From: Spirochaetia bacterium
GTDB lineage: Bacteria; Spirochaetota; Spirochaetia; WTKD01; G963693115
Direction of reading: 5' to 3'
Assembly (NCBI GenBank): GCA_965226055.1
Contig: CBDDCA010000006.1
Coordinates: 258,251 to 322,250 of the forward strand
DNA length: 64,000 bases
The notes under the pieces are model-generated. The model was not told the DNA's origin, did not search any database, and saw only the letters and a program-made list of their open reading frames with translations. Shown one piece after another: positions 16,601 to 61,657 of the stretch (its first letter is position 1; the number at the start of each line of letters is the position of its first letter). The position numbers and the translations under genes are program-made.

Positions 16601-19073
16601 AGGTATGTGTTGCTAAAGCACCTGTACTACCAGTAAAGCTACTGGTAAACTGTATGGTGTAAGAAGTTTGTGAAACTGCTTTGGTAGGAGTGCCTGATAT
16701 TGTCCCAGTGCTAGTATTAAAACTCAACCCTGTATTTGCTGTTATATCTGGACTAATACTAAAATTTCCTGCTATATCAGGCGTTTTGCTAAGGGTTATT
16801 TCTTCATTTTTTGCTAGCGGTATTCCTCTATATACATCTATACTAGCACTATTTGACTTTATGCTAAAATACCATGTAGGTAATTTTGCTACTGCGGTAT
16901 TCTTAAATATATCTGTTTTTGTCACAGCGATTGCTACATTCCAGCCTTCAAGATCTTGTGTAAACTTAGAAGCACCAGAAAACATGCTACTCATATTGGT
17001 AACCTTGCTTACATTCCATCCCGACACATTTTGATTGAAACTTGTTGCTCCTAAAAACATACTGCTCATATCGGCAACTTTACTTACATTCCATCCCGAT
17101 ACATTTTGATTGAAACTTGTTGCTCCTAAAAACATACTGCTCATATCGGTAACTTTACTTACATTCCATTTCGATATGTCTCCATTAAAACTTGTTGCTC
17201 CTGAAAACATACTGCTCATATCGGTAACTTTACTTACATTCCATTTCGATATATCTCCATTGAAAGTAGTGTTATCCTTAAATAGCCTACTCATATCTGT
17301 TATAAGACTCGTATTTATTATGTTTAGATTAGCAGTATTTCCTTGCAATCCTACCTCTGTTTTTATAGCTTCCAATAATTCTGCTTTATTTTTTGGCTTA
17401 TACTCTATAGTGAGCAATATTTCTATTGTCCTATCAGTATCAGTATAGGTATGTATTTCTGTCCTATCAGAGGAGGTACTTGTAAATGTTATAATATACT
17501 CAGTCTCTGAGGCTACCTTTGTAGGAGTACCTGATATTGTGCCAGTACTAGTATCAAAACTCAACCCTATACTCGTTATATCTGGCTTTATACCAAATTT
17601 TCCTGTTATATCAGGCGTTTTGCTAAGAGTTATTTTTTCATTATCTGCTAGTGATACCCCTTTATATACAGTGAGCTCATCAACATTAGCACTTATGCTA
17701 AAATACCATGTAGGCAATTTTGCTACTGCGGTATTTGTAAACATATCTTTTTTTGTCACAGTGCTTGCTACATTCCAGCCTTCAAGATCTTTATCAAATG
17801 CACTTGCTCCTGAAAACATACCATCCATATCTGTAATATTACTTACCTTCCACTTTGATATGTCTCCATTGAAACTTGTTGCTCCTGCAAACATATTACT
17901 CATATCGGTAACATTGCTTACATCCCACAATGATATATCTCTATTAAAGGTAGTGTCATCCTTAAATAGATCATGCATATCTTTTACAGCACTTGTATTT
18001 ATATAGTTAAAATTATCTACATCAGTATTTTTAATTGCTTCTATTAATTCGTTACGTGTTTTTACTATAGCAGTAAACACCGATACATATATAGAGAACT
18101 GGCTAGACTTTCCTAAGTAACTTCCATCCCCTGTAAAACGAATTGTATATTTTCTTCGTATACCATTTTCTTTATCCTTCAATAACCTTATTGCAGTGCC
18201 ATATATTTCTCCATTATTGTCCTTCATCTCCAATCCTGTATCTTCCGTAAGAGTTGTCGTTTTTCCATCAGTACTATTAAATTCAATACTCCATGTACCA
18301 GTAATTCCTGGAGGGCTTGTTGCAATATTGATTGGCATTAAAGGAACATTCAAGCTCGACTTGATTAACTGTTCATTATCATACCTATCTGTGATAGAGT
18401 TTCCATCACGCACAAGAGTAAATACATAATGCCAACTAGGAATACTTGTTGCAGGTACATTAGCTCCCTTAAATATATCTTGTATATTTACTGAATCTGC
18501 TACCTGCCATTTCTCTAAATCATACTGAAACACTGTTGCTTTATTAAACATGTTACTCATATCGGTAACCTTGCTCACATTCCAGCCTGATATATCTTGA
18601 TTAAAACTTGCTGCGGCTTCAAACATGTTACTCATATCGGTAACCTTGCTCACATTCCAGCCTGATATATTTTGATTAAAACTCGTTGCTCCCTTAAACA
18701 GATTACTCATATTAGTAACATTACTTACATTCCAGCCTGATATATTTCCATTAAAGGTAGTATTTCCTTCAAACATACTGCTCATATCAGTAATATTGCT
18801 TACATCCCAACTTGATATATCACCTGAAAAATTGGAAAATTCACCATCACCTTTGAATAAGCCGCTTATATCTTTTACTTTACTTGTATCTATAGTAGAG
18901 AGATCTGCTGCATTTCCGCGGGAGGCAATTTCTCGCTTAATGTTTTCAATAAGCGATTCTCTACTATCAGGAGAGTAAATAAAGTCTAAACTTAAAGATT
19001 TTTCTGGATCACAACCAGATACCAAAAAAGCGAAACATAAAAATAGCCAAAATATAAAAAATTGATACTTCAT
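10605..19073 (-). CDS. giant modular surface lipoprotein: 11 modules of DUF285/BspA LRR blocks, most followed by a putative-Ig (He_PIG-like) domain
   Basis: 2822-aa uninterrupted ORF. The lipobox is FLVSGCDP. There are eleven module starts of the type GNTANLNIIDTS.ITDMS.LF. Each is followed by 3-11 copies of the 23-aa unit F(N)xDIS.WNVS.VT.M..MF..A..F, then AVAKLPTWYFSISA and GLSFDTSTGTISGTPT. The last module ends with LPGWCLPAGNCR. Confidence 0.9.
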   Translation of the reverse strand: MKYQFFIFWLFLCFAFLVSGCDPEKSLSLDFIYSPDSRESLIENIKREIASRGNAADLSTIDTSKVKDISGLFKGDGEFSNFSGDISSWDVSNITDMSSMFEGNTTFNGNISGWNVSNVTNMSNLFKGATSFNQNISGWNVSKVTDMSNMFEAAASFNQDISGWNVSKVTDMSNMFNKATVFQYDLEKWQVADSVNIQDIFKGANVPATSIPSWHYVFTLVRDGNSITDRYDNEQLIKSSLNVPLMPINIATSPPGITGTWSIEFNSTDGKTTTLTEDTGLEMKDNNGEIYGTAIRLLKDKENGIRRKYTIRFTGDGSYLGKSSQFSIYVSVFTAIVKTRNELIEAIKNTDVDNFNYINTSAVKDMHDLFKDDTTFNRDISLWDVSNVTDMSNMFAGATSFNGDISKWKVSNITDMDGMFSGASAFDKDLEGWNVASTVTKKDMFTNTAVAKLPTWYFSISANVDELTVYKGVSLADNEKITLSKTPDITGKFGIKPDITSIGLSFDTSTGTISGTPTKVASETEYIITFTSTSSDRTEIHTYTDTDRTIEILLTIEYKPKNKAELLEAIKTEVGLQGNTANLNIINTSLITDMSRLFKDNTTFNGDISKWNVSKVTDMSSMFSGATSFNGDISKWNVSKVTDMSSMFLGATSFNQNVSGWNVSKVADMSSMFLGATSFNQNVSGWNVSKVTNMSSMFSGASKFTQDLEGWNVAIAVTKTDIFKNTAVAKLPTWYFSIKSNSASIDVYRGIPLAKNEEITLSKTPDIAGNFSISPDITANTGLSFNTSTGTISGTPTKAVSQTSYTIQFTSSFTGSTGALATHTYTDRTITISVEIHKYKHTPNNIAELKQAITTEINAQGNTANLNIIDTSNITDMSDLFKDNTTFNGNISEWNVSKVTDMENMLSGAIKFNGDIENWNIASLKTKTNMFTNTAVAKLPTWYFSISASSNSIHEGVKVPITDIILTRTPLIAGSFSISPDIKANTGLDFDTRTGTISGTPTEAASQTSYTIQFTSSFTDSSGNPATYTYVDTRSITLSVAINTYLYTPNNKTELLENIKKEIEVQGNTANLNIINTSNITDMSNIFENKANFNGDISGWDVSSVTDMSNMFSGATSFNQNVSGWNVSKVADMSSMFLGASAFDKDLESWKVASDGTVTKTDMFKNTAVAKLPTWYFSISANKSALTGQARIKLGASEEIKVTKTPSIAGSFSISPSITTNTGLSFDSSSGTISGTPTKVASKTPYTIQFTSEKNGKTIYAYTDRTITITVTIGHKYTPTGKLELINNINTEIGLQGNTADLNIIDTSKIDDMSGLFNSNTTFNGKISEWDVSNVTDMSHMFNQAAAFNGDISGWNVSNVIDMSSMFYYAGSFNQDISNWKVQSVTNMNGMFWNATSFNQDISNWKVQNVNDMGNMFSGATSFNKDISGWNVGAVTDMNRMFLGAANFNSNMSGWDVRKVTNMTAMFSGATIFNKDISNWKVGKVTNMHQMFSSAAAFNQDISSWNISSVTDIGKMFLGATKFNQDLEDWNVASDGTVTKTDIFKNTAVAKLPTWYFSISASDNKIIAYKNIPLATDKEITLTKTPNITGSFSVSPDIAKNTGLDFDPSTGKISGTPLTAISKTEYTIQFTSKKTDGTVIHKYIDTDRTIKISVEIRRYKHTPNNKTELKQAITTEINVQGNEANLNIIDTSKITDMSDLFKDNITFNGDISEWDVNAVTNMSSMLSGANAFEKDLESWNVASGVTKTDMFKNTAVAKLPTWYFNISASNRSINTYVNVPLAKNKEITFTKTPDITGSFSISPDITVNTGLDFNTSTGTISGTPTKAASKTDYTIEFTSSFTDSKGNPATHKYTDRTIKISVTTSYKHTPSNKTELQKAVDDEIAAQGDTANLNIIDTSVITDMSNLFEDKANFNGDISKWNVSKVTNMSNMFLNANKFNGDISGWNVSAVTNMESLFAGAHAFNQDIKNWTVSKVINMRAMFLSAQSFNQDIKNWTVSKVTNMETMFNFASKFSANLENWNVKSSVIKTNMFESTVVKKLPTWYFSINANRTTITGYKDLSLSNTETITLTKTSNVTGSFSISPNITTNTGLNFDTNTGSISGTPTILASQTKYTIQFTSEKNGKTIHTYTDRTIEIHVTISQYKYTPSDKTELQKAVDDEINAQGNTANLNIIDTSAITDMSNIFSSKDHFNGNVSKWDVSKVTNMSSIFAGAQKFNGDISNWNVSSVTNMFFMFNNANAFNQDLESWNVDSGVTKTDMFLASAVKKLPTWYFSISANSTTISVYRDLSLLDSQKIILTKTPVITGSFSISPNITTNTGLNFDTSTGIISGTPTTVTSQTEYTIQFRSEEADKTLIHKYIDDRRTIKVLVTIKEYKHIPNNKAELQQAINTEITVQGNTPDLTMIDTSKIKDMSSLFSSEVNFNGNISRWNVSSVTNMSSMFFKASEFNQDITGWNVSKVTDMRSMFINASKFNQDITGWNVSKVTDMSNMFKGASVFNKELETWNVDKTVSKTNMFEHTAVVILPTWYFNISASRASIGGSVKAYVGVPLTKDKEVTLTKTPAIAGIFSISPDITADTGLSFDADTGKISGTPTKAASKTYTIEFTSKKSDGKAIHTYTDASRSKTISVTIEYKYTPQNKKKLEEAIEAEIKAQGFAPNLNMIDTSNITDMGGLFYDKQYFNGDVSLWNVSKVTDMSNMFNQTEFFNGDISKWNVGKVTNMNSMFYDAEAFNQDIGNWNVSNVANMRYMFYDADVFNQDIGNWNVSNVTDMSSMFADASVFNQNLSNWNVANSVIKTDMFKGTAVKNLPGWCLPAGNCR

Positions 19074-37179: not shown

Positions 37180-38484
37180 CTAAGGAATAATGTTACTTAC
37201 AAGATAGTCTCTATTATACATGATAACTCTACCCAACTTATACTCTCTCCATTTCACAAGAATAGGTTGAGGAACAATATTCTTTTCTTGCTCCAACTGT
37301 GTTACAGTGAACATCGTACTATCATATATAGTAGCTATTTCTAAACGCTCTTTGAGCATTGTTACTAAATTACCATCAACAGACCATAATTTTATTCTTG
37401 CATCCTTTCCTGCACTTGCAATACTATTGCTCTTTCCATTAAAAGCAACTGTCCATATACGATCATTATTATCCTTAATACTTCGTTCTAAAGTAGCATT
37501 TTTTACATTCCATATATTTATACTCTCATCAGCACTACTACTAATAATATACTTTGAATCAGCACTAAACCCAACAGCATATATATTTGAAGCATGTCCT
37601 TTTAGTACACGACTTGCTCGCAGTCCTTCTTTAGACGACTTTGCCTGTGCTAAGTCATCCAACGAGTATACTATTATCGTACAATCATCACTAGCACTTG
37701 CAAGATATTTTCCATCTGCACTAAACGCCAACGCATTGACATCTCCGTAATGTCTTCTAAAGCTCTGTAAAGCAGTTATGTTTCTGTCTTGCTTTGCCAT
37801 TTCTGTATTAAAAGGAACATTCCAAAATCGTACAATATTATCTGTACCACCACTTGCAAGATATGTTCCGTCAGAACTATATGCTATAACATGTATCTCC
37901 TGTTGTGTCTGTAGCTCATCTATAAGCTGTGCATTCTCTACATCCCATATACGAATACTTCCATCTTTTCCCGCACTTGCAAGAGTATTTTCACTAGGAT
38001 GAAATGCTATAGTATACCCCTCGTTCTGTGAGATAGTATGATTTTGTGACTTATCCTGAAATTGAGCTTGAATTTGAGTAAGGATATTCCCTTTATTTGT
38101 TAGATCCCAAATAGTAATAGTACCATCAACACTCACACTTGCTACCAACGTTCCACTAGGACTATATAGTACTTGAGAAATAGCAGAGCTATGTCCTTCT
38201 AAACTACGAATAATCTGATAACTGTTTAGGTCCCATAGTTTGACTGTATTATCTTTTGATCCACTCACAAGAAAATTACCACTAGGAGAAAATGCAATGC
38301 TAACAACATCATCACTATGAATGGGCTGTGGCTCTAACCTTTCTAAGCCTACTTGTTGCATAAAATCAAGGGCTGACCCCTTCGCTACTTCCTGCTCTTC
38401 CTTATATGATGTACAGCTTGTTGCTACCAAGAGAACATAAAAAAAAGAGATTATAAATATACACTGTAATAATTGCTGTTTCAT
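37180..38484 (-). CDS. WD40-repeat lipoprotein (seven-bladed propeller predicted)
   Basis: 434 aa. The lipobox is LLVATSCTS. There are seven units of the type FSPSGNFLVSGSKDNTVKLWDL. Confidence 0.85.
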   Translation of the reverse strand: MKQQLLQCIFIISFFYVLLVATSCTSYKEEQEVAKGSALDFMQQVGLERLEPQPIHSDDVVSIAFSPSGNFLVSGSKDNTVKLWDLNSYQIIRSLEGHSSAISQVLYSPSGTLVASVSVDGTITIWDLTNKGNILTQIQAQFQDKSQNHTISQNEGYTIAFHPSENTLASAGKDGSIRIWDVENAQLIDELQTQQEIHVIAYSSDGTYLASGGTDNIVRFWNVPFNTEMAKQDRNITALQSFRRHYGDVNALAFSADGKYLASASDDCTIIVYSLDDLAQAKSSKEGLRASRVLKGHASNIYAVGFSADSKYIISSSADESINIWNVKNATLERSIKDNNDRIWTVAFNGKSNSIASAGKDARIKLWSVDGNLVTMLKERLEIATIYDSTMFTVTQLEQEKNIVPQPILVKWREYKLGRVIMYNRDYLVSNIIP

Positions 38485-42087: not shown

Positions 42088-43044
42088 TCATATTGGTATC
42101 TTAATCCATGCTTGAGGCACATCTGTATCATTGATACTGTATCCTTCTTTTTCTTTAGAACTAATATACGGTAAAATTACTATCTTATCTTTATTTGTAT
42201 TAAGCCATGCTCCCCACCAACTAAATGTACTACTTGCAATTATTTGATGCTTACATTTACTTAGCAAATATAAATCTTCATGTCCTTTTGAAAGTGAATT
42301 TCCGTCCATAATAGTAAAGGATATATGAGAGAAACGATGAGCTTGCCTTTTAACCCATGCAGGATCATCACTAAAGAAAAAATAATGTGGATGCTGTAAT
42401 TTTTTCTGCATAATATGTATTGCAGCAAGATAATAATCTATACCTACCAAATTGCCTATAGTAACAACATCTGTCCTACGAATATGAACTCCCACTGATT
42501 GCTTTTTACTCAATATGATGTTTTCGTATTTTAAAGAATAGCTGCCAAGTGGATTACGAAGGGTACATTGCTGAAGAATATCACTTCGATACTCTTCAAA
42601 AAATGTATGACATTGAAACCAACCATCAAGGTACACATTATTCCCCAGACGAAATAAAGATTGTACATACTCATCTGGATACCCATATTTAACATGATGA
42701 TTATTAAACGTTTTCAAACAATATATCTTTGTAAGATACCGTTTAAGAAATAATGCTACTTTCATAGGAACATTCATTTTCCTTATAAGAGATAATAAAG
42801 CATGCACTCTCCTATAATATTTGTAAGAAGGTATTAGTAAGCAACCATATTGAGCAATAATATTATATTCATCAAGAAAAAGAATACGAGCTTTTATACT
42901 GTTACCAGCAGAATCTTTCACAAAATAATCATAATCTAAAAAATCAAGAACAACATAGGTATTATTTTTTCTTGCTAAGGCATAGGCTGTAGCGTATTGA
43001 AATAACTGATTACCAAGTCTCCCTTGTACTTTAACAGCTATCAT
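42088..43044 (-). CDS. glycosyltransferase family 11 (alpha-1,2-fucosyltransferase-like)
   Basis: 318 aa. GRLGNQLFQYATAYALA, VGVHIRRTD and IIASSTFSWWGAWL match the FutC-type motifs GGLGNQMFQYA, HIRRGD and STYSWW. Confidence 0.85.
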   Translation of the reverse strand: MIAVKVQGRLGNQLFQYATAYALARKNNTYVVLDFLDYDYFVKDSAGNSIKARILFLDEYNIIAQYGCLLIPSYKYYRRVHALLSLIRKMNVPMKVALFLKRYLTKIYCLKTFNNHHVKYGYPDEYVQSLFRLGNNVYLDGWFQCHTFFEEYRSDILQQCTLRNPLGSYSLKYENIILSKKQSVGVHIRRTDVVTIGNLVGIDYYLAAIHIMQKKLQHPHYFFFSDDPAWVKRQAHRFSHISFTIMDGNSLSKGHEDLYLLSKCKHQIIASSTFSWWGAWLNTNKDKIVILPYISSKEKEGYSINDTDVPQAWIKIPI

Positions 43045-43990
43045 ATCTTATACCATATTTATCCCTTCCATTGAGGACGTACCCCCCCCCCCCCAATTTC
43101 CACAGCATGCCTTTTACAATATTCTTAAAAGATTGATATAACGAAGGTTTCATTTTTTTCTGTAATAATTTCTCTGGTAAAAAATATTGATGAAAATAAA
43201 ACCATACATCAAAAGGATGAGGAGGATCAATCATATGAAAATATTCGGGATATCCAATGGCAAGACGAGCATATATATTTTGTTCTACTCCAATAAATGT
43301 ACCATGAGAAGACATGTTATCCTTCAATGTATAGTAAAGATTATGTATTTTTAAGAGAATAGAGCTATGAATAAGAAATAAGCCTCCAACATGTTCTCTT
43401 GTTCGCAAGGTCAATGTAGCTATATTTTCTTTCTCCTTCGCATATTGTTGAACATCAAACCTTTGTTCTGTTTTTGTCATTACTACTTTATGGGGAGACA
43501 TAGTAGTTACTTTTTCTACATCAGGCCACTGTCTAATTTCTCTTGGTTTCAAATCGTAATCATACCTACGCTTTCTTCCTCTAAACGCTCCAATATCCAT
43601 CCACATAAACCACTGCGACCGAAACACATTTAACTCATACGCTTCTTTTACAAAATGTAATTTTTCGTTCCATATAATATACAGCTCAGGATCATGTATA
43701 TCTTTTTCTTTATTTTTTGCATGATGTTCTTGATACAATGCATAATGAGCATACTCATGAAGCTGATGAAATTCTTTTATAATAACAACAGTATTTTCTT
43801 GATACTTTTTCCTTAATCGTAAAAAATAGGGAGCATGCTCTTTATCAGTAAATATAACGAGCGGGAGTTTCATATTACAGAGAAAATTTTTTATCCACTG
43901 TTTATACATATCATCACTATGTTTTGATTTCTTAAGACGATAATATGCAGTCACTATTGTGAGACTATTCTTAACAATACTTTCCTCCAA
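43031..43990 (-). CDS. HtrL/YibB-like glycosyltransferase, tandem copy 1, with a G13 tract near the 3' end
   Basis: 319 aa. A TTG start is inferred because no in-frame ATG precedes the conserved N-terminus. TIVTAYYRLKKSKH...W..N.L......VIFTD resembles the HtrL_YibB family, from memory. The C-terminal tail after GGGG is YVLNGRDKYGIRYDSC. It overlaps the GT11 start by 14 nt. Confidence 0.7.
   Translation of the reverse strand: MEESIVKNSLTIVTAYYRLKKSKHSDDMYKQWIKNFLCNMKLPLVIFTDKEHAPYFLRLRKKYQENTVVIIKEFHQLHEYAHYALYQEHHAKNKEKDIHDPELYIIWNEKLHFVKEAYELNVFRSQWFMWMDIGAFRGRKRRYDYDLKPREIRQWPDVEKVTTMSPHKVVMTKTEQRFDVQQYAKEKENIATLTLRTREHVGGLFLIHSSILLKIHNLYYTLKDNMSSHGTFIGVEQNIYARLAIGYPEYFHMIDPPHPFDVWFYFHQYFLPEKLLQKKMKPSLYQSFKNIVKGMLWKLGGGGYVLNGRDKYGIRYDSC
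43082..43094 (-). repeat. homopolymer C13 on the plus strand (G13 in the coding strand)
   Basis: Counted directly: 9 C at 43082-43090 and 4 C at 43091-43094. Confidence 0.95.
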
Positions 43991-44114: not shown

Positions 44115-45119
44115 TCAAAAATAAGACAAGATGCCATTAGTATACAACAAAAATTCTATTTTATAAGCAAACTCTCTTTCCTTCCTTATTATTATTCCAT
44201 TGGGGTGTACCCCCCCCCCCCCCAATTTCCACAGCATGCCTTTTACAATATTCTTAAAAGATTGATACAACGAAGGCTTTATTTTTTTCTGTAATAATTT
44301 CTCTGGTAAAAAATATTGATGAAAATAAAACCATACATCAAAAGCATGAGAAGGATCAATCATATGAAAATATTCAGGATATCCAATGGCAAGACGAGCA
44401 TATATATTTTGGTCTACTCCAATAAATGTACCATGAGAAAACATATTATCCTTCAATGTATAATAAAGATTATGTATTTTTAAGAGAATAGAGCTATGAA
44501 TAAGAAATAAGCCTCCAACATGTTCTCTTGTTCGCAAGGTCAATGTAGCTATATTTTCTTTCTCTTTCGCATATTGTTGAACATCAAACTCTTCCTCTGT
44601 TTTTATCATTACTGCTTTATGGGGAGACATAGTAGTTACTTTTTCTACATCAGGCCACTGTCTAATTTCTCTTGGTTTCAAATCGTAATCATACCTACGC
44701 TTTCTTCCTCTAAACGCTCCAATATCCATCCACATAAACCACTGCGACCGAAACACATTTAACTCATACGCTTCTTTTACAAAATGTAATTTTTCGTTCC
44801 ATATAATATACAGCTCAGGATCATGTATATCTTTTTGTATATCTTTTGCATGATGTTCTTGATACAATGCATAATGAGCATACTCATGAAGCTGATGAAA
44901 TTCTTTTATAATAACAACAGTATTTTCTTGATACTTTTTCCTTAATCGTAAAAAATAGGGAGCATGCTCTTTATCAGTAAATATAACGAGCGGGAGTTTC
45001 ATATTACAGAGAAAATTTTTTATCCACTGTTTATACATATCATCACTATGTTTTGATTTCTTAAGACGATAATATGCAGTCACTATTGTGAGACTATTCT
45101 TAGCAATACTTTCCTCCAA
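44115..45119 (-). CDS. HtrL/YibB-like glycosyltransferase, tandem copy 2, with a G14 tract near the 3' end
   Basis: 334 aa and near-identical to copy 1 up to ...WKLGGGG. After that it has a different tail, VHPNGIIIRKEREFAYKIEFLLYTNGILSYF, because of the extra G and different downstream DNA. Confidence 0.7.
   Translation of the reverse strand: MEESIAKNSLTIVTAYYRLKKSKHSDDMYKQWIKNFLCNMKLPLVIFTDKEHAPYFLRLRKKYQENTVVIIKEFHQLHEYAHYALYQEHHAKDIQKDIHDPELYIIWNEKLHFVKEAYELNVFRSQWFMWMDIGAFRGRKRRYDYDLKPREIRQWPDVEKVTTMSPHKAVMIKTEEEFDVQQYAKEKENIATLTLRTREHVGGLFLIHSSILLKIHNLYYTLKDNMFSHGTFIGVDQNIYARLAIGYPEYFHMIDPSHAFDVWFYFHQYFLPEKLLQKKIKPSLYQSFKNIVKGMLWKLGGGGVHPNGIIIRKEREFAYKIEFLLYTNGILSYF
44210..44223 (-). 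repeat. homopolymer C14 on the plus strand (G14 in the coding strand)
   Basis: Counted directly: 1 C at 44210, 10 C at 44211-44220 and 3 C at 44221-44223. Confidence 0.95.
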
Positions 45120-52974: not shown

Positions 52975-54195
52975 CTATACTTCTACTTCTTTTGAATAGT
53001 CTACAGAGTCCCACATAAAACCATGAATAGTATAAAATTCCTTGCGAAATCCATGTATGTCTGTTTTTTCTTCAAGGTTAGTTTCATCTATTTGATTCCA
53101 AATATCCGCTACTTTCTTCTGAATATCGTCTCGCATTTCCCAATCATCCATACGAATACGCTGATGTTCATCAGTACGAATACCTACATTAGTCGCATGC
53201 TCACTTCCGTATATTCTTTCACTAAAGAGTCTCCCCATTTGTTCTATGCATCCTTCATGAATGCCTTCTTCTTTCATCACCTTATATAATATAGCAAGAT
53301 ACAAGGGAACGACAGGAATGACACTACTAGCTCGCGTTACTAACGCTTTATTTACCGAAACATATGCTCGACCGAGTCCTGCTGACTGCATTGCAGTATC
53401 AAGCTCATGTGCAGTAGCTTCTAAATCTTCTTTTGCTTTGCCTATTGTTCCGCTTCTATATAGCTCCTTTGTTAGTTCAGGACCGATATATGAAAACGCA
53501 ATATTGAAGGAATTTTCAGCCAATACCCCAGCTTTCATCAATGCCTCTGTCCATAGCTTCCAATCTTCTCCTCCCATCACTTTCACAGTGTGAGCAATCT
53601 CTTCCTCACTTGCAGGAGCAACATCAATATCATATAAAGAAGAATCAACTATATTGATTGACTTTCCTACAAAATTGTTTCCTATCGGTTTTAATACCGA
53701 ATTATATACTTCCCCTGTAGTAGGATCAATACGCTTTGGTGAAGCAAGGCTATAAATAACAAGATCTATCTTTCCCATTTCTTGCTGTATTACATCAATA
53801 CACTGCTGTTTTATTTCATTACTAAATGCGTCACCATAAATGGAGTTACACCAGAGCCCTGCTTGTTTTGCTTCCGCTTCAAAGGCATGCGTGTTATACC
53901 AGCCTACAGTAGCAGTTCGCTTTTTTGCAGGATTAGCAGGAGCTTCAAAGGCAACACTCAGTGTCTTTGCTCCATATCCAAATGCAGCAACAATACGCGA
54001 GGCTAAGCCATATCCTGCAGATCCTCCAAGAATCAGTACATTTTTCGGAGCATTACTGCTCTTATCTTGAATACTTTGTATGTGTTTTTTGACATACTCA
54101 ATTTGTGATTGCACTAATTTTGTACACCCAGTTGGATGTGCATTTATACAGACATTTTTCATTATTTTTGGTGATACTATCATACTTTCTGCCAT
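52975..54195 (-). CDS. fabV: trans-2-enoyl-CoA/ACP reductase (FabV/Ter family)
   Basis: 406 aa. MIVSPKIMKNVCINAHPTGC..QIEYVKK...KNVLILGGSAGYGLASRI..AFGYGA and KVMGGEDW...GTIGKAKEDLEATAH...VNKALVTRASSVIPVVPLYL...HEGCIEQ parallel the T. denticola Ter sequence as I remember it. Confidence 0.9.
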   Translation of the reverse strand: MAESMIVSPKIMKNVCINAHPTGCTKLVQSQIEYVKKHIQSIQDKSSNAPKNVLILGGSAGYGLASRIVAAFGYGAKTLSVAFEAPANPAKKRTATVGWYNTHAFEAEAKQAGLWCNSIYGDAFSNEIKQQCIDVIQQEMGKIDLVIYSLASPKRIDPTTGEVYNSVLKPIGNNFVGKSINIVDSSLYDIDVAPASEEEIAHTVKVMGGEDWKLWTEALMKAGVLAENSFNIAFSYIGPELTKELYRSGTIGKAKEDLEATAHELDTAMQSAGLGRAYVSVNKALVTRASSVIPVVPLYLAILYKVMKEEGIHEGCIEQMGRLFSERIYGSEHATNVGIRTDEHQRIRMDDWEMRDDIQKKVADIWNQIDETNLEEKTDIHGFRKEFYTIHGFMWDSVDYSKEVEV

Positions 54196-54283
54196 ACTTA
54201 CTCCTATTGATTAAAATATATTACATGGTATTTTACATTATATTAAAACAATGGTATTGTTGCAGTAACTTATTATTGGGGAT

Positions 54284-54692
54284 CACGAGTTCAAGGATTA
54301 AATGCGACAAAGGAGCAAAAAAAGTAAGAAAAATAAAACAAAGCATATTTTTATTAGCTACTACATATAGTGTATATTTAGTATATAATTTTCAATTTAA
54401 GCACTAGAGAAATTTGCTTTATTTTTATATTAATGTTATACTAAATGCAGAATAATAAGAGAACAATAACATTATGAGTGTACAAGTAAAAACTGATACA
54501 AAAGAAACTACTTTAATTTTAAATAATACCGATAAGGAAAATTTGGAAAGATGTTTCTCGGAATGGAAATTCAAAGATTATCAAAGTCTTATGAGGTTCG
54601 TATCATCTATTTTAATTGAGAGCGAAGATAAAATAACAATAGGCATTAAGAAAAGTGGAGTGCTAAAAGAATTTTCACCAGCAGACCATTTA
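54284..54692 (+). repeat. about 400-bp dispersed repeat (copy 2): IS30 IRL-like sequence, leader and small ORF; it matches 26867..27266
   Basis: See copy 1. The first 55 nt or so (gatcacgagttcaaggattaaatgcgacaaaggagcaaaaaaagtaagaaaaa) are identical to the left end of the intact IS30 element 500 bp downstream. Confidence 0.9.
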
Positions 54693-54731: not shown

Positions 54732-54783
54732 TGATAATTATATCACCGATCAACAGTTAAAGGAATTTAATTATGTCACCGAT
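54700..54783 (+). pseudogene. 5' fragment of a paralogue of the 114-aa tail-anchored protein gene, interrupted by IS30
   Basis: MSEPQNNQKSSDNYITDQQLKEFNYVTD compares with MADNQNNKPNAEYSIEHQLKELKQDIITP (27282). The frame runs straight into the IS30 IRL. Confidence 0.5.
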
Positions 54784-55866
54784 CACGAGTTCAAGGATTA
54801 AATGCGACAAAGGAGCAAAAAAAGTAAGAAAAAATAAAAAAAGGAGACACTCTATAATTGTATAAACGAAACAAATTAGGAGGTCTCCTTTATGAGTATA
54901 CCAAAAAACTCATTTCGTCATCTGACAGAGAAAGATCGTACTATTATCGCTACGCTCCGTCATGCAAAGTACAGTGTCAATGCTATAGCCAAACGCCTCA
55001 GTGTCCATCGCAGCACTGTCTATCGTGAAATACAACGCAATGGGGGCAAACGTGTCTATAATGAAGTCATTGCTCACAGACGGGCAAGAAAACGATGGGA
55101 ACAGAGTCATACAAAACACTCTGTTCTTTCTCATACTATTCGTACCTATATCGTTTTTCACCTTATTTTCGATGGCTGGTCGCCCGAACAAATAGCAGGA
55201 AGGCTCAGTATTGATATGCCTCAGTATGCTATCAGTCATGAGACGATATATCACTTTATTTACCGTTTCGCTCCTCATTTGACACAGTATCTGCGAAAAC
55301 AGCACCAAACACGCAAAAAAAGAACCATATCTCACTCTTTTTCTGTTTCTCGTATCCCTCATCGTGTCTCAGTACACGAACGAGGCGATGTTTCTAATGA
55401 ATATGGCCACTGGGAAGTAGATCTTGTTGGCTCTTCTTCAAAAGCTACTGTGCTTGCTTTAGTGGAAAAACATACCCGTTATGTTCTTTTTCATAAGATA
55501 CCTGACAAAACTGCTCATACCGTACAGTATGGCATGCTCTTTGCTCTAAGGAACATACCACGCCATTTATGTAACAGTTTCACTTATGATAATGGGAGTG
55601 AATTTATGCTCCATACTGAAATAAATACACGCTTGAATGCTCGTTCTTATTTTTGTACTCCTTACTGTGCTTGGGAAAAAGGATTAGTCGAACATTCTAT
55701 TGGATTATTACGTCAGTACTTTCCTAAGAAGACTTTGTTTCATAGAGTCAAGCAAAGTGATATACTACAAGTACAAACGCTTATCAATCATAGACCACGA
55801 AAATGTCTTCATTTTTTGACCCCTGCTGAAGCCTTTTCTGTCGCATTTAGTCCTTGAATCCGCACT
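54784..55866 (+). mobile_element. intact IS30-family insertion sequence, about 1.08 kb
   Basis: The IRL is cacgagttcaaggattaaatgcgacaaaggagc. The reverse complement of the right end (55833-55866) is gtgcggattcaaggactaaatgcgacagaaaagg, sharing the core TTCAAGGAyTAAATGCGACA. There is a single transposase ORF inside. The exact termini are uncertain by a few nt. Confidence 0.85.
54892..55857 (+). CDS. IS30-family DDE transposase
   Basis: 321 aa. The N-terminal HTH reads LTEKDRTIIATLRHAKYSVNAIAKRLSVHRSTVYREIQRN. GHWEVDLV, TYDNGSEF and EHSIGLLRQYFPK are the D, D and E blocks typical of IS30 transposases. An RBS aggagg lies 8 nt upstream. Confidence 0.92.
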   Translation: MSIPKNSFRHLTEKDRTIIATLRHAKYSVNAIAKRLSVHRSTVYREIQRNGGKRVYNEVIAHRRARKRWEQSHTKHSVLSHTIRTYIVFHLIFDGWSPEQIAGRLSIDMPQYAISHETIYHFIYRFAPHLTQYLRKQHQTRKKRTISHSFSVSRIPHRVSVHERGDVSNEYGHWEVDLVGSSSKATVLALVEKHTRYVLFHKIPDKTAHTVQYGMLFALRNIPRHLCNSFTYDNGSEFMLHTEINTRLNARSYFCTPYCAWEKGLVEHSIGLLRQYFPKKTLFHRVKQSDILQVQTLINHRPRKCLHFLTPAEAFSVAFSP

Positions 55867-55888
55867 TAGTACAGAAAATAATAAGGAA

Positions 55889-55969
55889 ATGATAATTACT
55901 CTTATGGCTGATAAATTTGAAATTGCTAAAGACGCAATGACTTATCGTCTGGGATTACAAAATAAATAG
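55889..55969 (+). pseudogene. possible 3' fragment of the gene interrupted by IS30
   Basis: MIITLMADKFEIAKDAMTYRLGLQNK shows patchy similarity to DIITPHKFAKIFSDAMRESKGL of the 27282 product. It has no TM tail. The assignment is tentative. Confidence 0.3.
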
Positions 55970-56137
55970 CTTTTTTATGATAGCCTAAAAAACTCTCTGT
56001 AATTGCCCATCATAGCAATACTACAAAAATTTTAATTTTTTACTATAATACTAGTGTATGATGATAACATACAATAATGAAACAAAAGGAGTATTTCTAT
56101 GAATGAAAATAGAGAGCTACAAAGTATGAAAAAAATC

Positions 56138-56152
56138 GGGGGGGGGGGGGGG
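56138..56152 (+). repeat. homopolymer G15 inside the 5' end of the surface lipoprotein gene
   Basis: Counted directly: 3 G at 56138-56140, 10 G at 56141-56150 and 2 G at 56151-56152. Confidence 0.95.
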
Positions 56153-56190
56153 TACACTCTCGATATAAGCAAAACCTAACTATACTAGTA

Positions 56191-59100
56191 GTGCTAGCAA
56201 TGACTACCCTCGTACTTGTAGGATGTGCAGAGAGTAGCAACAATTCCTCATCAGGCGGAGGGGGAAAACAGGTAACCCCGACACTCGCATCAGTGTCCAA
56301 TGTGCAGATACAAGCAGCAAGCAACGATGGGACGCTCTCGTTACGCTGGCAAGCTCCCAGCGAAGCCACGCATGTAGTAGTAAAAGCTACATCAACTGCG
56401 CCAGCACAATCTATACAGGTGCGTGTTCCTGCAATAGAATATCGTGCATTGTTTCAACAAAACAGACCCTACACCCTCAGAGGCTTGCATGCCACTACCG
56501 ATTATACAGTAGAGATAGAAGCACAAAAATCAGACTCAGAAGTATCACCAAAAACAACACGCTCTGTGACAACACTGATCGATGAAACTGCACCACAGGA
56601 CACTTTTACACGGGTAGCAGTAGAGAAAGCACAAAACGATAGTATAAAGCTAACATGGGACAAAGCACTGCTATCGTCAGGCAAGACAGACATAGCCGAA
56701 GCCACAATACAGGTGATAGAAAGAACTACTAATGTAAGGGCAGAAGTATCAGTACAAGATGTAACACAAGGAGAGGTGAGCATTGCTGTCCCCACTATAG
56801 ACGGCATAAGCTATGATATAGTAGTAGTATACAAAGATAGCAACGGTAACGAAAGCACAGCAAAGCAAGCACTCAGAGGCATAGTGCCATCAGCACTCTC
56901 ACAAACAGTAACGCCACTTTCCGCATCAGACCTTACAGTAACAGCAAACGATAAAAGCAATAGCCCAGCCGATGAAAGCCTGCTTATTATGTGGGATGAT
57001 AAAGATGACAGCTTTGACTTTTCAAACAAAAGCCTCCAAGTACGCGTTATAGCAACCGCAACAAATACAGTAGTAGCAGAGGAGACAATAGACAAAGATA
57101 CAAGTGCAACAAATGTCAGCGGAGCAAGTGCAGACAACCAAGAGTACGCCACTGTGTATGTAGCAAAAGATGGCATAGCACTCACAAAACTCTATGGCAC
57201 GCTTACCTACAAAGTAGAAGTGTATGTTTCTCAAAACGGAAAGTACTCCACTGCAGTGTCAAAAGAACAAGCAACAACAGACAAAAGCACAGAGCCTGTA
57301 AGCAATGTAAGTGCCGTAGGAGGAGCAACAAGCATAGTAGTAGGCTGGCAAGCCCCCGATGTACGAGATTATGCAGGAGTGACTATAACAGTAACAGAAA
57401 AGGACAGCACAACAGCAGCAAAGACAGTGACAATAACAGAGAGAACAGTACGCAACACACAGATAACAGACCTCAAAGCAACCACCGAGTATACAGTGGC
57501 AGTCGTATCAATGGACAGTGCAGGCAACAAAGGAACAGAAGCAACAGCCACAGTCAGCACATCAGCAGATAGCACCGCCCCCGATGCAGTAACAAGCATA
57601 CAAGCAAGCTATCCTTTTGTATCAGCAGCAAAGATAGGCACACAGATAACATGGACAGCACCCGATGCAGCAAAAGCAAAGAACAAAGACATAAAAGAAT
57701 ACAGCGTAAGCATAGCAGAAAAAGGCACAAGCACCACAGTACTGAGCGAGAAGAAAATACCCTATCCCACAAAGTCACTCTCTGTAGAAGAACTTGTGCA
57801 AGGCAAAACATATACCATAACAATACTCACGCTTGATTACTCAGAAAACAAAAGTAGCCAAGCCACAAAAGACATAACAACCCCCAACTCACTCACAGCT
57901 CCCTCAGAAGATCTCTTTCAAAGCAAGCCTACCCTTGACAAAACAGGAGCTATACAGATAAAAGCAACTTTTAAGAATGCTCCAAGCATAGGACGATACT
58001 ACACCTTGCGTATGAAAGAGGGAGCTACCTTAATAGCAGAAAAAAGCATAACAAACACAGCAATCACCATTAGCTTTGGGATAGCAGATGGCTTAGAAGT
58101 ACCTAAGAGCCAAGCAAATGCCAAGAATTATCGCTTTGATTTTCTGCAAATAGCAAATAACAGAGTAAGTCCAGTAACCGCACTGAGTGATGCAGTAGCA
58201 GTATACGATAGCACCTCGACAGCACCGCCCGCTCCCAAAGATGCAAAGCTCTCCGTAGAGTCAGTAACCCAAACAACTGCAAAAGCAGTCTATACATTTA
58301 GTGCAGGAGACATTACTGATACCAACAAAGCACCCAGCGGAAGCAAACTCACACAGGCACAAATACAATACAAAGTATACATAGCAGCAGGAGACCACAG
58401 CACAAAAACACTAGACGAAATAAAAGCCCTTGCAGGAGTACAAACAAGAGAGCTAGCAGGAAACAGCACTCCATTAAAAGCAACATTTATAGGAACGAAA
58501 GGAGCAGACTATACCGCAGGGGTAGAAGCAATAAACAGCCTCAATCCATCATATAGTACAGGAGCATCAGTAACAATAAAGAAAGCAACACTTACTGCTC
58601 CCCCAAGCACACCAAAAGTAACAACCTACACTAACAGTAATGCAGTGGTATTTGCAGTGCCTACCACAGGAAGTAACAGCGGGAAAAAAGTCATAACAGT
58701 ACAACTCAATGCCTCAGACATAGCAGGAGTGAGCAAGGCAAATGGCAATGCCCTTGAAGCGACAGACCTTGCCTACTATGTGCTATACCTCAAGAAAGAA
58801 GATAGCACAGGAAAGCCTGCCAGCGTATCAGCACTATGGGCAACAGAAAAGAGCAGTACAAGAGTGGCAAAATACACAAAAGCAACAGGAACAACTCAAG
58901 ACACAATATCCATAGCAATAGTAGACAGCACCAGTGGAAGCAATGCAGGAGCCACACCCATAGAAACAGCAAAAGACTACTACATAGGAGTAAGGATAGT
59001 CAACACAACATCCCCCAATTACGATGCAACAAATAGCGACAAGCTCTTTCCTGCAGGCTTTTACACCGATGTAACAGAAATAAAGGAAATCTATACTTCC

Positions 59101-60906
59101 AAAGCAGTAGCACCCAGCCAGTCATTACTCACAGGAAAGCTGGTAGTATCACAGTCAACAAATACTACAGGCACAATAAAGCTGGTACTTACCGAGCTAA
59201 ATACATTTACAGGAGCAAAAGACTACGATGGCACAAACATAACAGCAAATGACAAGCTAGTATACACAGTGTATGGCTTACAGAAAGACACCACTCCTAC
59301 AGTAGCAGAAGTACTTGCAGGCAGAAAAGTAAACCTAGGCAGTGCAAGTAGCGGAGTGTACACAGTACCAGCTCTTGCCAGTTTAGGCTTATCTTCAGAC
59401 ACAGCACCAGTAGTAGCAATAAAAGGAGCGACAAAGTATTACTTTGTGGTAGAGGTAGCAATAAAAACAGACCCTAGCAAGAAAGTAGCATCCTCAACAG
59501 TAGCAAGCGTAACAACCGCATCGCAGGCGACCGCCCCCGCAGAAGTAAGCAGTATACAGACAAGAGTAGCCCAGACAGGCATGAGAGTATCGTGGACAGC
59601 CCCCAGCCTCAGTGCAAGCCACAAAGCAAATACAGGCGATGCCCTAACAGTAGCACAAGTATCGTACAAGGTATACAAAGTAGCTAAGGGAGGCAGTGCA
59701 AAAAGTGTAGCAGCAATAAAACAAGCAGACTCAAGTCCTACAACAGTAGCAGCAGGAACAACAAACACTACCCTGACAGGATTGACAAACGGAACGACCT
59801 ACGAAATAGTAGTGCAAGCAGTAAACAGCACCGATGATACAAAAGCATCCACTGGACTACGCCACGAGTTTGAAGCAAGAGGAATAGCTATAGGAAACAC
59901 TAGCATAGTCTCAGCAGAAGTAGGCAAAACGCCAGCAATAAATATTACAAGAGTACTTACCAGTAACTCTGCCTTTACCTGTGATGCAAACATACTAGAG
60001 GCAGATGCAAAGAAGATAAAACAAGAAACAGGGCTAGCAGTATCGTTTGATCAGAGTAGCAAAACAGTTACTATAACAGGCATAGCAAATAAGTCTAATA
60101 TACGAGATACAGCCATTACTGAGTATAACTATGCTGTAGCACAGTGTACAATAACCGCTTCAAAGAAAAAAGTGCCAGCCACCATCGTGATACAGACAGA
60201 GCTAAGAACAGCACCATCAGGAAAAGCAGAAGCCTATTACAGACCAACAACAAAGGCACAGCTTCAAACTATTATCAGTGAAGAAAAGACAAGGCAAGGT
60301 TCAGGAGGAAACAGTAACCCTAGCCCCAACCTCAACATGATAGACACCAGTGCTATTACTGATATGAGCCAATTATTTCAGAATGATACTACTTTTAATG
60401 GAGATCTAACACAGTGGAATACCAGTAATGTAACGAGAATGAATGGTATGTTTACTGATGCAAGTGTTTTTAATCAAAATATAGGAGATTGGGATACAGG
60501 AGAAGTTATACATATAGGTAGTATGTTTTTTAGAGCAAGTGTTTTTAATCAAAATATAGGAAGCTGGAATATAAGTAAAGTTAAAAATATTGATAGTATG
60601 TTTGCTAGTGCCAGTGCTTTTAATCAAGACATAGGAAATTGGGACACAAGCAATGTTATTAATATGAGTACTACATTTTTGAGTGCAAGTGCCTTTAATC
60701 AAGACATAGGAAACTGGAATGTAAAGAATGTCGATTCTATAACTGGTATGTTTAACGGAGCTTCTACATTTGATCAAGATTTATCATCATGGATATTGTG
60801 TAAAGCAAGTCTCACTTTTTTGGAGTTCGAAAATTCGGCTATGGATGGAAAAACAGCAAAGTACCCGACAGTAAAGCGTCAAAGTGATCCAGCATGTACA
60901 TCGTAA
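56191..60906 (+). CDS. large surface lipoprotein with multiple FN3-like domains and a C-terminal DUF285/BspA LRR block; the 5' end is out of frame with its probable true start at 56099
   Basis: 1571-aa ORF as listed (GTG start). The lipobox is TLVLVGCAES. Numerous FN3-like units are present, for example VSNVSAVGGATSIVVGWQAPD...TEYTVAVVSMDSAGN. One unit at 59518..59877 is homologous to the 1791..4043 repeats. The C-terminus reads NLNMIDTSAITDMSQLF followed by six 23-aa DUF285 units. The upstream ATG 56099 with RBS aaaggag is separated from this frame by the G15 tract. Confidence 0.85.
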   Translation: MLAMTTLVLVGCAESSNNSSSGGGGKQVTPTLASVSNVQIQAASNDGTLSLRWQAPSEATHVVVKATSTAPAQSIQVRVPAIEYRALFQQNRPYTLRGLHATTDYTVEIEAQKSDSEVSPKTTRSVTTLIDETAPQDTFTRVAVEKAQNDSIKLTWDKALLSSGKTDIAEATIQVIERTTNVRAEVSVQDVTQGEVSIAVPTIDGISYDIVVVYKDSNGNESTAKQALRGIVPSALSQTVTPLSASDLTVTANDKSNSPADESLLIMWDDKDDSFDFSNKSLQVRVIATATNTVVAEETIDKDTSATNVSGASADNQEYATVYVAKDGIALTKLYGTLTYKVEVYVSQNGKYSTAVSKEQATTDKSTEPVSNVSAVGGATSIVVGWQAPDVRDYAGVTITVTEKDSTTAAKTVTITERTVRNTQITDLKATTEYTVAVVSMDSAGNKGTEATATVSTSADSTAPDAVTSIQASYPFVSAAKIGTQITWTAPDAAKAKNKDIKEYSVSIAEKGTSTTVLSEKKIPYPTKSLSVEELVQGKTYTITILTLDYSENKSSQATKDITTPNSLTAPSEDLFQSKPTLDKTGAIQIKATFKNAPSIGRYYTLRMKEGATLIAEKSITNTAITISFGIADGLEVPKSQANAKNYRFDFLQIANNRVSPVTALSDAVAVYDSTSTAPPAPKDAKLSVESVTQTTAKAVYTFSAGDITDTNKAPSGSKLTQAQIQYKVYIAAGDHSTKTLDEIKALAGVQTRELAGNSTPLKATFIGTKGADYTAGVEAINSLNPSYSTGASVTIKKATLTAPPSTPKVTTYTNSNAVVFAVPTTGSNSGKKVITVQLNASDIAGVSKANGNALEATDLAYYVLYLKKEDSTGKPASVSALWATEKSSTRVAKYTKATGTTQDTISIAIVDSTSGSNAGATPIETAKDYYIGVRIVNTTSPNYDATNSDKLFPAGFYTDVTEIKEIYTSKAVAPSQSLLTGKLVVSQSTNTTGTIKLVLTELNTFTGAKDYDGTNITANDKLVYTVYGLQKDTTPTVAEVLAGRKVNLGSASSGVYTVPALASLGLSSDTAPVVAIKGATKYYFVVEVAIKTDPSKKVASSTVASVTTASQATAPAEVSSIQTRVAQTGMRVSWTAPSLSASHKANTGDALTVAQVSYKVYKVAKGGSAKSVAAIKQADSSPTTVAAGTTNTTLTGLTNGTTYEIVVQAVNSTDDTKASTGLRHEFEARGIAIGNTSIVSAEVGKTPAINITRVLTSNSAFTCDANILEADAKKIKQETGLAVSFDQSSKTVTITGIANKSNIRDTAITEYNYAVAQCTITASKKKVPATIVIQTELRTAPSGKAEAYYRPTTKAQLQTIISEEKTRQGSGGNSNPSPNLNMIDTSAITDMSQLFQNDTTFNGDLTQWNTSNVTRMNGMFTDASVFNQNIGDWDTGEVIHIGSMFFRASVFNQNIGSWNISKVKNIDSMFASASAFNQDIGNWDTSNVINMSTTFLSASAFNQDIGNWNVKNVDSITGMFNGASTFDQDLSSWILCKASLTFLEFENSAMDGKTAKYPTVKRQSDPACTS

Positions 60907-61084: not shown

Positions 61085-61657
61085 ATGCAACAGAAAGCAT
61101 CTGCCACAGACACACAAGAACTACAGGACATTATCTCAGCATTAGATAACGAACAATATAGAAATAGCTTTGGTCGTATAGTACGTAATCTTGAAGACAT
61201 TAAAACATACACAAAAAAACTATATCTCAAAAATATGCTACAGATAGCACTTTCACAAAACTATACATGCATAGATGAAGAAACATTTGCTCTTGCAGAA
61301 ACACAAGAACACGATACACTGTCTTTAGCAATACGTTCTGGATCAGAATGTGGTGGCGTATACTATGCCCTGTTTCTAAAAAGCAAAAACTATACTCTCC
61401 CTGCATATCTTACACTAAAATCTTTCTGTGATACGACTATTCCTCGTATTATTGGCTGTCATAGTCCCGAACAAATACCTTTCTTTTGGAATTACTTTAA
61501 TCCCGCCATTAACTTTCTGTTCTTCTCCGATAACAACACTCTCTCCCTTCTTCATACACAATCACGACAAAAAATAGTTACGCAGCACTGGAAACAGTTA
61601 CATCAGTTCTTACACACTATTACCGATGAAGTAAAGAAACATTTCACTCTATTGTAA
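61085..61657 (+). CDS. hypothetical protein
   Basis: 190-aa ORF in an otherwise empty interval. I recognise no motif. Confidence 0.45.
   Translation: MQQKASATDTQELQDIISALDNEQYRNSFGRIVRNLEDIKTYTKKLYLKNMLQIALSQNYTCIDEETFALAETQEHDTLSLAIRSGSECGGVYYALFLKSKNYTLPAYLTLKSFCDTTIPRIIGCHSPEQIPFFWNYFNPAINFLFFSDNNTLSLLHTQSRQKIVTQHWKQLHQFLHTITDEVKKHFTLL

Follow-up and report, generated by a model that had tools for sequence, protein, structure and literature searches.

Organization of the locus

The DNA analysed here is a 64,000-nt stretch (hereafter, the window) of contig CBDDCA010000006.1 from the Spirochaetia bacterium assembly GCA_965226055.1. It contains a gene for a giant predicted lipoprotein, with FN3 domains and PARCEL/DUF285 repeats, whose signal-peptide coding region carries a homopolymeric tract of 15 guanines (G15). 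An earlier note on the same DNA had proposed that this tract is an intragenic ON/OFF switch of translation. Reading the sequence again, we found the ribosome-binding site (RBS), the start codon, the tract, the stop codon that follows it and the long open reading frame (ORF) at the same positions as in that note.

The locus is on the forward strand and begins with a candidate -10 box, TATAAT (56044..56049, in the context TACTATAAT), which is an inferred and not a mapped promoter. A generic scan of the window for sigma-70 promoters and terminators gave counts no higher than in shuffled sequence, left this TATAAT unflagged and showed no good -35 box for it. The assignment is thus drawn from conservation among the paralogues described below, because those retaining their own upstream region contain a YTATAAT box at a comparable distance 5' of the RBS. 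The RBS itself, AAAGGAG (56085..56091), lies 7 nt 5' of an ATG (56099-56101). The reading frame opened by this ATG crosses a run of seven adenines (A7, 56129..56135), read as AAA AAA ATC (KKI), which is next to the tract and could be a second slip site; after the A7 come TC and then the 15 G (56138..56152). The tract is located 39 nt 3' of the ATG and 47 nt 3' of the RBS, a placement that differs from that of promoter-type tracts. As read with G15, the leader ORF (56099..56179) encodes MNENRELQSMKKIGGGGGYTLDISKT and ends at TAA 56177-56179, and a second TAA (56166..56168) closes the other OFF frame, in which tracts of n = 3k+2 would end as ...GGTLSI*.

The sequence 3' of the tract (56153..56226) belongs to a conserved cassette that encodes, in the ON frame, a basic n-region (VHSRYKQNLT), an h-region (ILVVLAMTTLV) and the lipobox L-V-G-C, whose cysteine (codon 56224-56226) is the predicted first residue of the mature lipoprotein. 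This frame is that of the long ORF, of 1571 codons from GTG 56191 (56191..60906, with the stop codon at 60904-60906), and the mature part, counted from Cys 56224, comprises 1560 aa. GTG 56191 lies 92 nt past ATG 56099, and the long ORF is hence in a different frame from the RBS-proximal ATG. Comparison with Rfam at gathering thresholds retrieved no RNA family from the whole window, so that an explanation by a riboswitch or a leader RNA is not available.

We then rebuilt the region in silico with tracts of 11 to 19 G, translating each version from ATG 56099. Tracts of G13, G16 and G19 yielded a fused product of 1601-1603 aa, with the N-terminus MNENRELQSMKKIGGGG(G)VHSRYKQNLTILVVLAMTTLVLVGCAES, and G11, G12, G14, G15, G17 and G18 yielded only peptides of 21-27 aa; within this series, a single-unit change in the tract is enough to exchange a full-length for a truncated product. 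The note had foreseen the fusion for 13 or 16 G, and the series extends it to 19. By rule-based inspection, the fused N-terminus has basic residues at K11, K12, R22 and K24, a 16-residue hydrophobic core and the L-V-G-C motif, and the fused product is predicted to be exported and lipidated. Inspection of the DNA 5' of GTG 56191 and of ATG 56200 found no purine-rich Shine-Dalgarno sequence, and a product begun at either codon would read (M)LAMTTLVLVGC, with no charged residue, which bears out what the note had said of these internal starts. TAA 56177 sits 11 nt 5' of GTG 56191, and some reinitiation may occur after it, which would yield a protein with a truncated, uncharged signal.

The tract is an outlier in its surroundings. 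The G+C content of the window is 34.7%, its longest run of G besides G15 is of 6, and runs of 15 or more G or C are expected by chance some 2e-6 times in 64 kb. Likewise, GGG accounts for 15% of the Gly codons of the window ORFs (14,791 codons), which sets the probability of five consecutive GGG codons at 8e-5, and four consecutive glycines a few codons further on in this protein use the codons GGC GGA GGG GGA. Because GGG is a minority Gly codon, an unbroken run of G is not a coding requirement. The idea of a poly-Gly linker required in the protein was thus dropped, on the basis of codon usage and of the tract-free paralogues and the scatter of frames presented in the next section.

A paralogous family with tracts of variable length

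Scanning one genome per species retrieved 33 loci, all of them from a single metagenome-assembled genome (MAG), OZ244590.1 ('MAG: Spirochaetia bacterium', 2.36 Mb). A tblastn census with the mature N-terminal domain, over 443,557 bases of OZ244590.1, raised the family to at least 36 distinct paralogues, 29 of which bear a tract. These 29 copies share the cassette (A/G)TG/ATC-AAAAAAATC-G(n)-TACACTCTCGATATAAGCAAA(A/G)CATAACTCTCGTTGCACTGTTTTTAGTGCTAGCAAT...CTCGTAGGATGT, or, in its short form, AAAAAAATC-G(n)-TACACTCTCGATATAAGC...lipobox. Their tract lengths range from 11 to 18, with n = 11 (one copy), 12 (three), 13 (one), 14 (ten), 15 (eight), 16 (three), 17 (one) and 18 (two), and the 29 cassette tracts are the only runs of nine or more G or C in the 443,557 bases examined.

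Across 30 copies, conservation in the first 120 nt 3' of the tract is 84-96% in each 10-nt bin, and the leader 5' of the tract is variable and falls into several unrelated classes. Leaders span 10-24 codons before the Gly run, and in 30 out of 30 copies they are open from the RBS-proximal ATG into the tract, with the KKI-Gly reading in all 25 copies that have an A7. The layout AAGGAG(N7-8)ATG occurs in every paralogue with a start of its own, including those without a tract. There are four tract-free paralogues in OZ244590.1 (L008, L029, L030 and L033) and a fifth, L050, on another metagenome contig; they contain the same RBS and ATG, followed by an ordinary lipoprotein signal, for instance MKKVMKKYWLIALVLAMTT.VLVGC or MKKYHNQNLTTVVALFLVLAIVTLVLVGC. 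These starts confirm that the RBS-proximal ATG is the start codon of the family and show that the tract is inside the signal-peptide coding region, and not in a 5' untranslated region (5' UTR).

Tract length varies even among the closest copies. When pairs were formed from copies with at least 95% identity over the 60 nt before and the 115 nt after the tract, 10 of the 13 pairs had tracts of unequal length, with differences of 1 to 4 G, which indicates that the length of the tract evolves much faster than its flanks. Counting the frame of each copy from its RBS-proximal ATG, we found seven of the 29 in frame at the lipobox (L002, L009, L011, L012, L013, L017 and L027, with a later stop in L011) and 22 out of frame. 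This split is compatible with an in-frame proportion of one third (p = 0.33), the value to be expected for fast, unselected switching.

The out-of-frame copies end in a recurrent manner. Those with n = 3k finish as ...YTLDISK(T/A)*, like the window leader, an ending that recurs across copies; nearly all the G11 and G14 paralogues with an A7 stop at the equivalent of TAA 56166, as GTLSI* or GTLSL*; and L016, a copy with four adenines (A4), ends as ...GTLDISRA*. Both OFF frames are thus closed by conserved TAA codons. Downstream of these stops, the mature ORFs of the OFF copies are mostly of around 1400-2000 codons and only that of L026 is cut short, at 716; there is an additional break in L011, at 102 codons. 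The ratios of non-synonymous to synonymous substitution (dN/dS, Nei-Gojobori) are 0.38-0.50 for OFF-OFF pairs versus 0.39 for one ON-ON pair. Since the OFF copies are open and are constrained by purifying selection as much as the ON copies, they are not pseudogenes.

The A run next to the tract also varies in the MAG: it is mostly A7, with A6 in L002 and L012, A8 in L011 and A4 in L016, L028 and L014b. All three copies with A6 or A8 are in frame (one-sided p = 0.037, with small numbers), which hints that the A run may be a second slip site, or that A6 and A8 may be compensatory changes.

Other features of the family concern its promoters, its rearrangements and its distribution along the chromosome. 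Poly-T tracts of ca. T8-T16 are found some 60-70 nt 5' of the -10 box in several family members, among them L007, L008, L012, L029, L030, L033 and L001 (9740-9760 in the latter), and hence also at copies that have no G tract; the window copy has no poly-T. They could be UP-element-like or could constitute a second, transcriptional variable tract. Some family copies have no start of their own: around position 6000 of L007, promoter-proximal sequence joins the mature N-terminus directly, with leader and signal deleted, and in L014 (2190-6000) one ORF of more than 2000 codons contains an upstream family gene and, beyond it, another N-terminal domain. The upstream gene of L014 has a divergent leader and h-region and yet contains a G15 at the same place. 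Both layouts suggest recombination within the family. Finally, of the 36 copies in OZ244590.1, those below ca. 1.02 Mb are on the plus strand and those above ca. 1.19 Mb are on the minus strand, apart from three (at 1.468, 2.002 and 2.322 Mb), a pattern that would be expected if the genes were read in the direction of replication and the origin lay near coordinate 0.

The encoded protein and its homologues

In comparisons with Pfam, the protein of the long ORF matches fn3 in four stretches (9.5e-27), and thus has at least four FN3 domains, and, in its C-terminal repeats, DUF285 (2.4e-57, 192 bits). These repeats are named PARCEL in NCBIfam, where TIGR02167 scores 39.5 bits against a cut-off of 30. 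The model for Mbov_0838-family PARCEL lipoproteins, NF045896, reaches 127 bits against a cut-off of 500, over the repeat region only, which leaves the protein outside that family. The note had described an FN3/BspA-type protein, and the first half of this name holds; the second does not, because the C-terminal repeats are DUF285/PARCEL and the Pfam matches at E ≤ 0.01 (DUF285, fn3, FN3_DSCAM-DSCAML_C and Pur_ac_phosph_N) include no BspA or LRR_5 family. The gene is best read as one member of a large family of FN3 and PARCEL/DUF285 proteins, with lipidation predicted from the signal.

Protein searches retrieved as relatives only P0001, P0002, P0004 and P0005, the family being very rare in public protein sets. 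P0002, an annotated protein from a 727-kb contig of another assembly, reads through the tract (MNDSYKSKELYSVKKIGGGGGVHSQYKQNL...), and its N-terminus, MNDSYKSKELYSVKKIGGGGGVHSQYKQNLTLVALFLVLAILILVGC, is the same leader read across G16. The gene call of P0001 begins at an internal start (MITLVLVGC...), and its DNA, locus L001, contains the same cassette with G15 and the ...YTLDISKA* stop; P0003 (MLAITTLVLVGC...) and P0005 were likewise called from internal starts.

The window gene shows 84-86% DNA identity to the nearest subfamily of the MAG, its leader (MNENRELQS) forms a class of its own, and its flanks are not syntenic with those of any MAG copy, save for a shared IS30-like element. The window therefore derives from a genome related to, and different from, OZ244590.1.

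A model of translational phase variation

From these results, we consider it highly probable that G15 is a slipped-strand, translational phase-variation element of a member of this giant lipoprotein family. The proposal of an intragenic poly-G switch finds support in the 29 paralogues, with tracts of 11 to 18 G in all three frames, in the conserved TAA stops and in the read-through of P0002.

In our model, the gene would be a simple-sequence contingency locus, with G15 as its hypermutable element. Translation would begin at the RBS-proximal ATG 56099 and, with an A7 and tracts of n = 3k+1, the ribosome would read KKI-Gly(4-6)-VHSRYKQN, the h-region and LVGC, giving an exportable, lipidated protein of some 1600 aa. 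The other two length classes would lead to a stop 5 or 9 codons later, at a conserved TAA, with no signal-bearing protein. Slipped-strand mispairing at replication would shift n by one unit in either direction, so that each gene would toggle ON and OFF heritably, reversibly and independently of its paralogues, and a clonal population would thus carry many combinations of surface lipoproteins. The sequences show the anatomy of the locus, the logic of its frames, the polymorphism of tract length across the family and the intact state of OFF copies under purifying selection; the model supposes, in addition, that the tract slips at a useful rate in this organism and that the protein is exposed at the surface. 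Taken at its assembled length, the tract also suggests that the sequenced population was predominantly OFF at this locus.

The cassette, of ca. 150 nt, consists of RBS and ATG, a variable short leader, A7-G(n), a conserved n- and h-region and the lipobox. At the scale of the genome, we see about even chances that the family forms a combinatorial coat, in which this near-identical cassette, spread over at least 29 diverged genes of 4.6 kb, would give each of them an independent, heritable switch. Its conservation could result from gene conversion or from selection. Together, the family genes make up ca. 7% of the 2.36-Mb genome.

If the switch works as its anatomy implies, each cell lineage would display a different subset of some 30 giant FN3/PARCEL lipoproteins, a form of bet-hedging typical of host-associated bacteria that face antibodies, phages and variable attachment sites. 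Intragenic homopolymer switching, known from mollicutes and proteobacteria, would also gain a spirochete example, with a repertoire that equals or surpasses those of opa and Campylobacter. Should the combinatorial coat be real, this would be the largest homopolymer-gated single gene family known to us, and Spirochaetota would have in it their first described case of a gene family switched translationally by intragenic poly-G. There are practical consequences as well: gene callers routinely mis-start or split such genes, as illustrated by P0001, P0003 and P0005, and what pass for homopolymer 'errors' in their long-read MAGs may reflect true differences within the population, which it would be unwise to polish away.

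Alternative explanations

Several observations weigh against a switch at this locus, or against the OFF state assigned to it. The length of G15 is an assembly consensus and a miscall by one unit in either direction is possible at the locus; the related MAG appears to be a metagenome assembly, as the window probably is too, and homopolymers of 11 or more may be miscalled in them by at least one base, so that the tallies of ON and OFF copies are provisional. The fused signal peptide is long, with the cysteine at residue 43. A scan of JGI metagenomes for ATCG(10)N{0,10}TACACTC gave 15 hits, none with cassette flanks, so that no population data were recruited, and a scan of IMG/VR for G10TACACTCTCRATATAARC gave no hits. 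Lastly, an orthologous locus in a second strain was not found, and the evidence for polymorphism comes from paralogues.

The alternative that best survives is a homopolymer miscall, which we regard as possible, if somewhat doubtful. The true tract would then be G16 (or G13), the gene would be intact and its OFF state an assembly artefact, even if the tract might still be mutable. Long runs of G are the hardest context on every long-read platform; contig names like ctg26443_14x_c and ctg31713_4.76x_l suggest that the relatives were assembled from metagenomes at modest depth, and on the 4.8x contig, L050, the family gene is broken into several ORFs. In addition, the modal lengths in the MAG, 14 and 15, fall slightly short of the in-frame 16, which is what a systematic tendency to under-call would give. 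Nevertheless, the range of called lengths, 11 to 18 across near-identical flanks, is too wide for an error of one unit around a single value, and the 14x MAG is indel-accurate outside the tract, with about three frame breaks in ca. 150 kb of family coding sequence. A miscall would also touch only the current state of the gene, leaving in place the conserved OFF stops, the use of GGG codons and the paralogues that have no tract. The claim that the gene is currently OFF stands, then, as regards the assembled G15, which is out of frame, and is inseparable from a miscall of one unit as regards the actual population.

It is unlikely that the DNA is instead stable and the protein produced at a constant low level by non-heritable recoding, either through slippage of the RNA polymerase on G15 or A7 or through a ribosomal frameshift at A AAA AAA. 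Long homopolymers are sites of transcriptional slippage, as established for A or T runs of nine or more, the A7 adjoins the tract, and a -1 shift would restore the ON frame in copies with n = 3k, such as that of the window. 'Riboshifting' was in fact raised by Nouvel et al. for the P48-like G10 tract of Mycoplasma agalactiae (PMC2824730). Yet the A run is outside the canonical X XXY YYZ register (its zero frame being ATG AAA AAA ATC), and no downstream stimulatory structure was identified, though none was specifically searched for. Recoding also leaves unexplained that near-identical paralogues differ in tract length and occupy all three frames. Replication should make a G15 slip whether or not there is recoding, so that recoding would make the replicative switch leaky without taking its place; transcriptional or ribosomal slippage is a possible source of such leakiness.

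We give very little weight to a third possibility, that the tract belongs to a 5' UTR and acts on transcription or on the mRNA, in the manner of the promoter tracts of Treponema pallidum or of the 5'-UTR tracts of spma in M. agalactiae, with GTG 56191 or ATG 56200 as the true start. It is true that gene callers chose internal starts for OFF copies (P0001, P0003) and that the precedents in T. pallidum are promoter-based, but the sole Shine-Dalgarno sequence precedes ATG 56099 and the same RBS and ATG begin the signal peptides of the tract-free paralogues. Moreover, leaders of variable length open into the tract in all 30 copies, with KKI-Gly in the 25 copies with A7, no frame but the one reached by way of the tract encodes the basic n-region (R, K), and the two other frames contain conserved stops.

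That the gene is a decaying pseudogene with a frameshift in a former poly-Gly stretch, as an interrupted RBS-ATG frame, an IS30-like transposase gene immediately upstream (54892-55857) and the extra breaks of a few paralogues (L026, L011) might suggest, is hardly credible in view of the 1560 stop-free codons 3' of its lipobox (chance P ~1e-47), of its dN/dS of 0.27-0.43 versus 13 paralogues (Nei-Gojobori), and of the 22 OFF paralogues that are likewise intact, with constraint equal to that of ON copies, the decay that the earlier note had named as a refutation of the switch being thus absent. Slipped-strand phase variation of translation is the best-supported reading.

Other features of the window

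The only other long runs of G or C in the window are C13 (43082-43094) and C14 (44210-44223). They lie within two tandem HtrL_YibB-like genes (43031-43990 and 44115-45119, minus strand), 16-31 codons before the stops, and read in the coding sense as G13 and G14. The two genes form a 983-nt duplication, with 97.5% identity, that ends ca. 16 nt past the tract, and a stop follows within 5-31 codons in every frame. The stop of the first copy overlaps the ATG of a GT11 glycosyltransferase gene (42088-43044). The effect of changes in these tracts would be confined to the C-terminal tail or to the coupling with the gene that follows. They share with the lipoprotein tract a TAC directly after the run. 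Genes of the HtrL-like and glycosyltransferase class often bear contingency tracts in other bacteria, and we count these two further long tracts in support of reading G15 as a contingency locus.

Other genes of the window are related in domain composition to the lipoprotein family and have no G tract: a 2822-aa ORF (10605-19073, minus strand) with 18 DUF285 stretches and He_PIG Ig-like domains, a 330-aa DUF285 protein (8650-9642, minus strand) and a 750-aa FN3 protein (1791-4043, plus strand), whose DNA resembles the sequence 5' of the family gene in locus L024 of the MAG. The lipoprotein locus is flanked by a FabV-like gene (52975-54195) and by an ORF at 61085-61657. The IS30-like transposase (HTH_38 and rve domains, plus strand) has 90% DNA identity to a copy beside L012. 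Short repeats near it (54278-54369, 54781-54843 and 55802-55867) are common to several MAG loci, and residues of a small ORF at 55864-55968 recur near family genes of the MAG. Lastly, a 434-aa protein that consists almost wholly of WD40 repeats (37180-38484, minus strand; 5 stretches, 5.6e-64) adjoins a 2-oxoacid dehydrogenase E1/E2 pair.

Comparison with known systems

The closest specific precedent is found in the poly-G lipoproteins of Mycoplasma. The P48-like gene of M. agalactiae has a G10 tract between its start and the lipobox, and expression of P68 in Mycoplasma bovis tracks tract length, G8-10 (PMC2824730). As in the window, one tract length restores an in-frame signal peptide with its lipobox (PMC2824730), and two of the Mycoplasma examples contain PARCEL/DUF285 repeats, like the window protein (PMC2996958). 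The Mycoplasma cases are single genes or small sets, with tracts of G8-G13, and were predicted from curation or from the comparison of strains, whereas the family described here has tracts of G11-G18, a conserved cassette and 29 paralogues of ca. 1500 aa in a diderm spirochete lineage. No N-terminal similarity was detected between the two groups, and the best NCBIfam model for PARCEL lipoproteins matches the repeats only.

The closest functional analogue, with no homology implied, is found in the opa genes of Neisseria, ca. 11 scattered genes with CTCTT repeats in the leader-peptide coding sequence that switch at ~1e-3 per generation (PMC3745409). Both are multigene families of surface proteins distributed around the chromosome, with a repeat in the signal or leader coding region of each copy and combinatorial expression (PMC3745409). 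Opa proteins differ in that their repeat is a pentamer and in that they are small beta-barrel outer-membrane proteins and not lipoproteins, with no sequence relationship to the window family; also, their rate of switching was measured, while switching in the window family is inferred.

Within the spirochetes, the earlier note had drawn an analogy with the tpr genes of T. pallidum, which is apt as to slippage but not as to how the tract acts. The poly-G tracts of T. pallidum (tprE/G/J, tp0126, tprL) are in promoters and act on transcription, with 8 G or fewer being permissive for tprE/G/J and the -35/-10 spacing being what matters for tp0126 (PMC7864442). The likeness is that of a spirochete with variable poly-G tracts at surface-protein genes and slipped-strand mispairing (PMC7864442); the window tract, by contrast, is 3' of both RBS and ATG and would act through the reading frame. 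The window protein is also unrelated to Tpr, matching only fn3-type and DUF285 families in Pfam. A comparison of cultivable treponemes counted G/C homopolymers and described no such family (PMC8049484). We found no published description of the family or of its cassette, in a partial coverage of the literature that makes this absence weak evidence, nor any literature on the MAG and assembly accessions.

Campylobacter and Helicobacter have long intragenic homopolymers of G or C in genes for surface structures and glycosyltransferases (PMC8355987). They resemble the window lineage in that the genome is of low G+C content and the tracts are outliers with respect to the distribution of run lengths (PMC8355987). 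Their tracts, usually G8-G13, are spread over many unrelated genes, whereas in the window lineage a single cassette family holds nearly all of them. In all, the mechanism is one that is already known; what is notable is the number of paralogues built on one cassette, and the spirochete lineage in which they occur.

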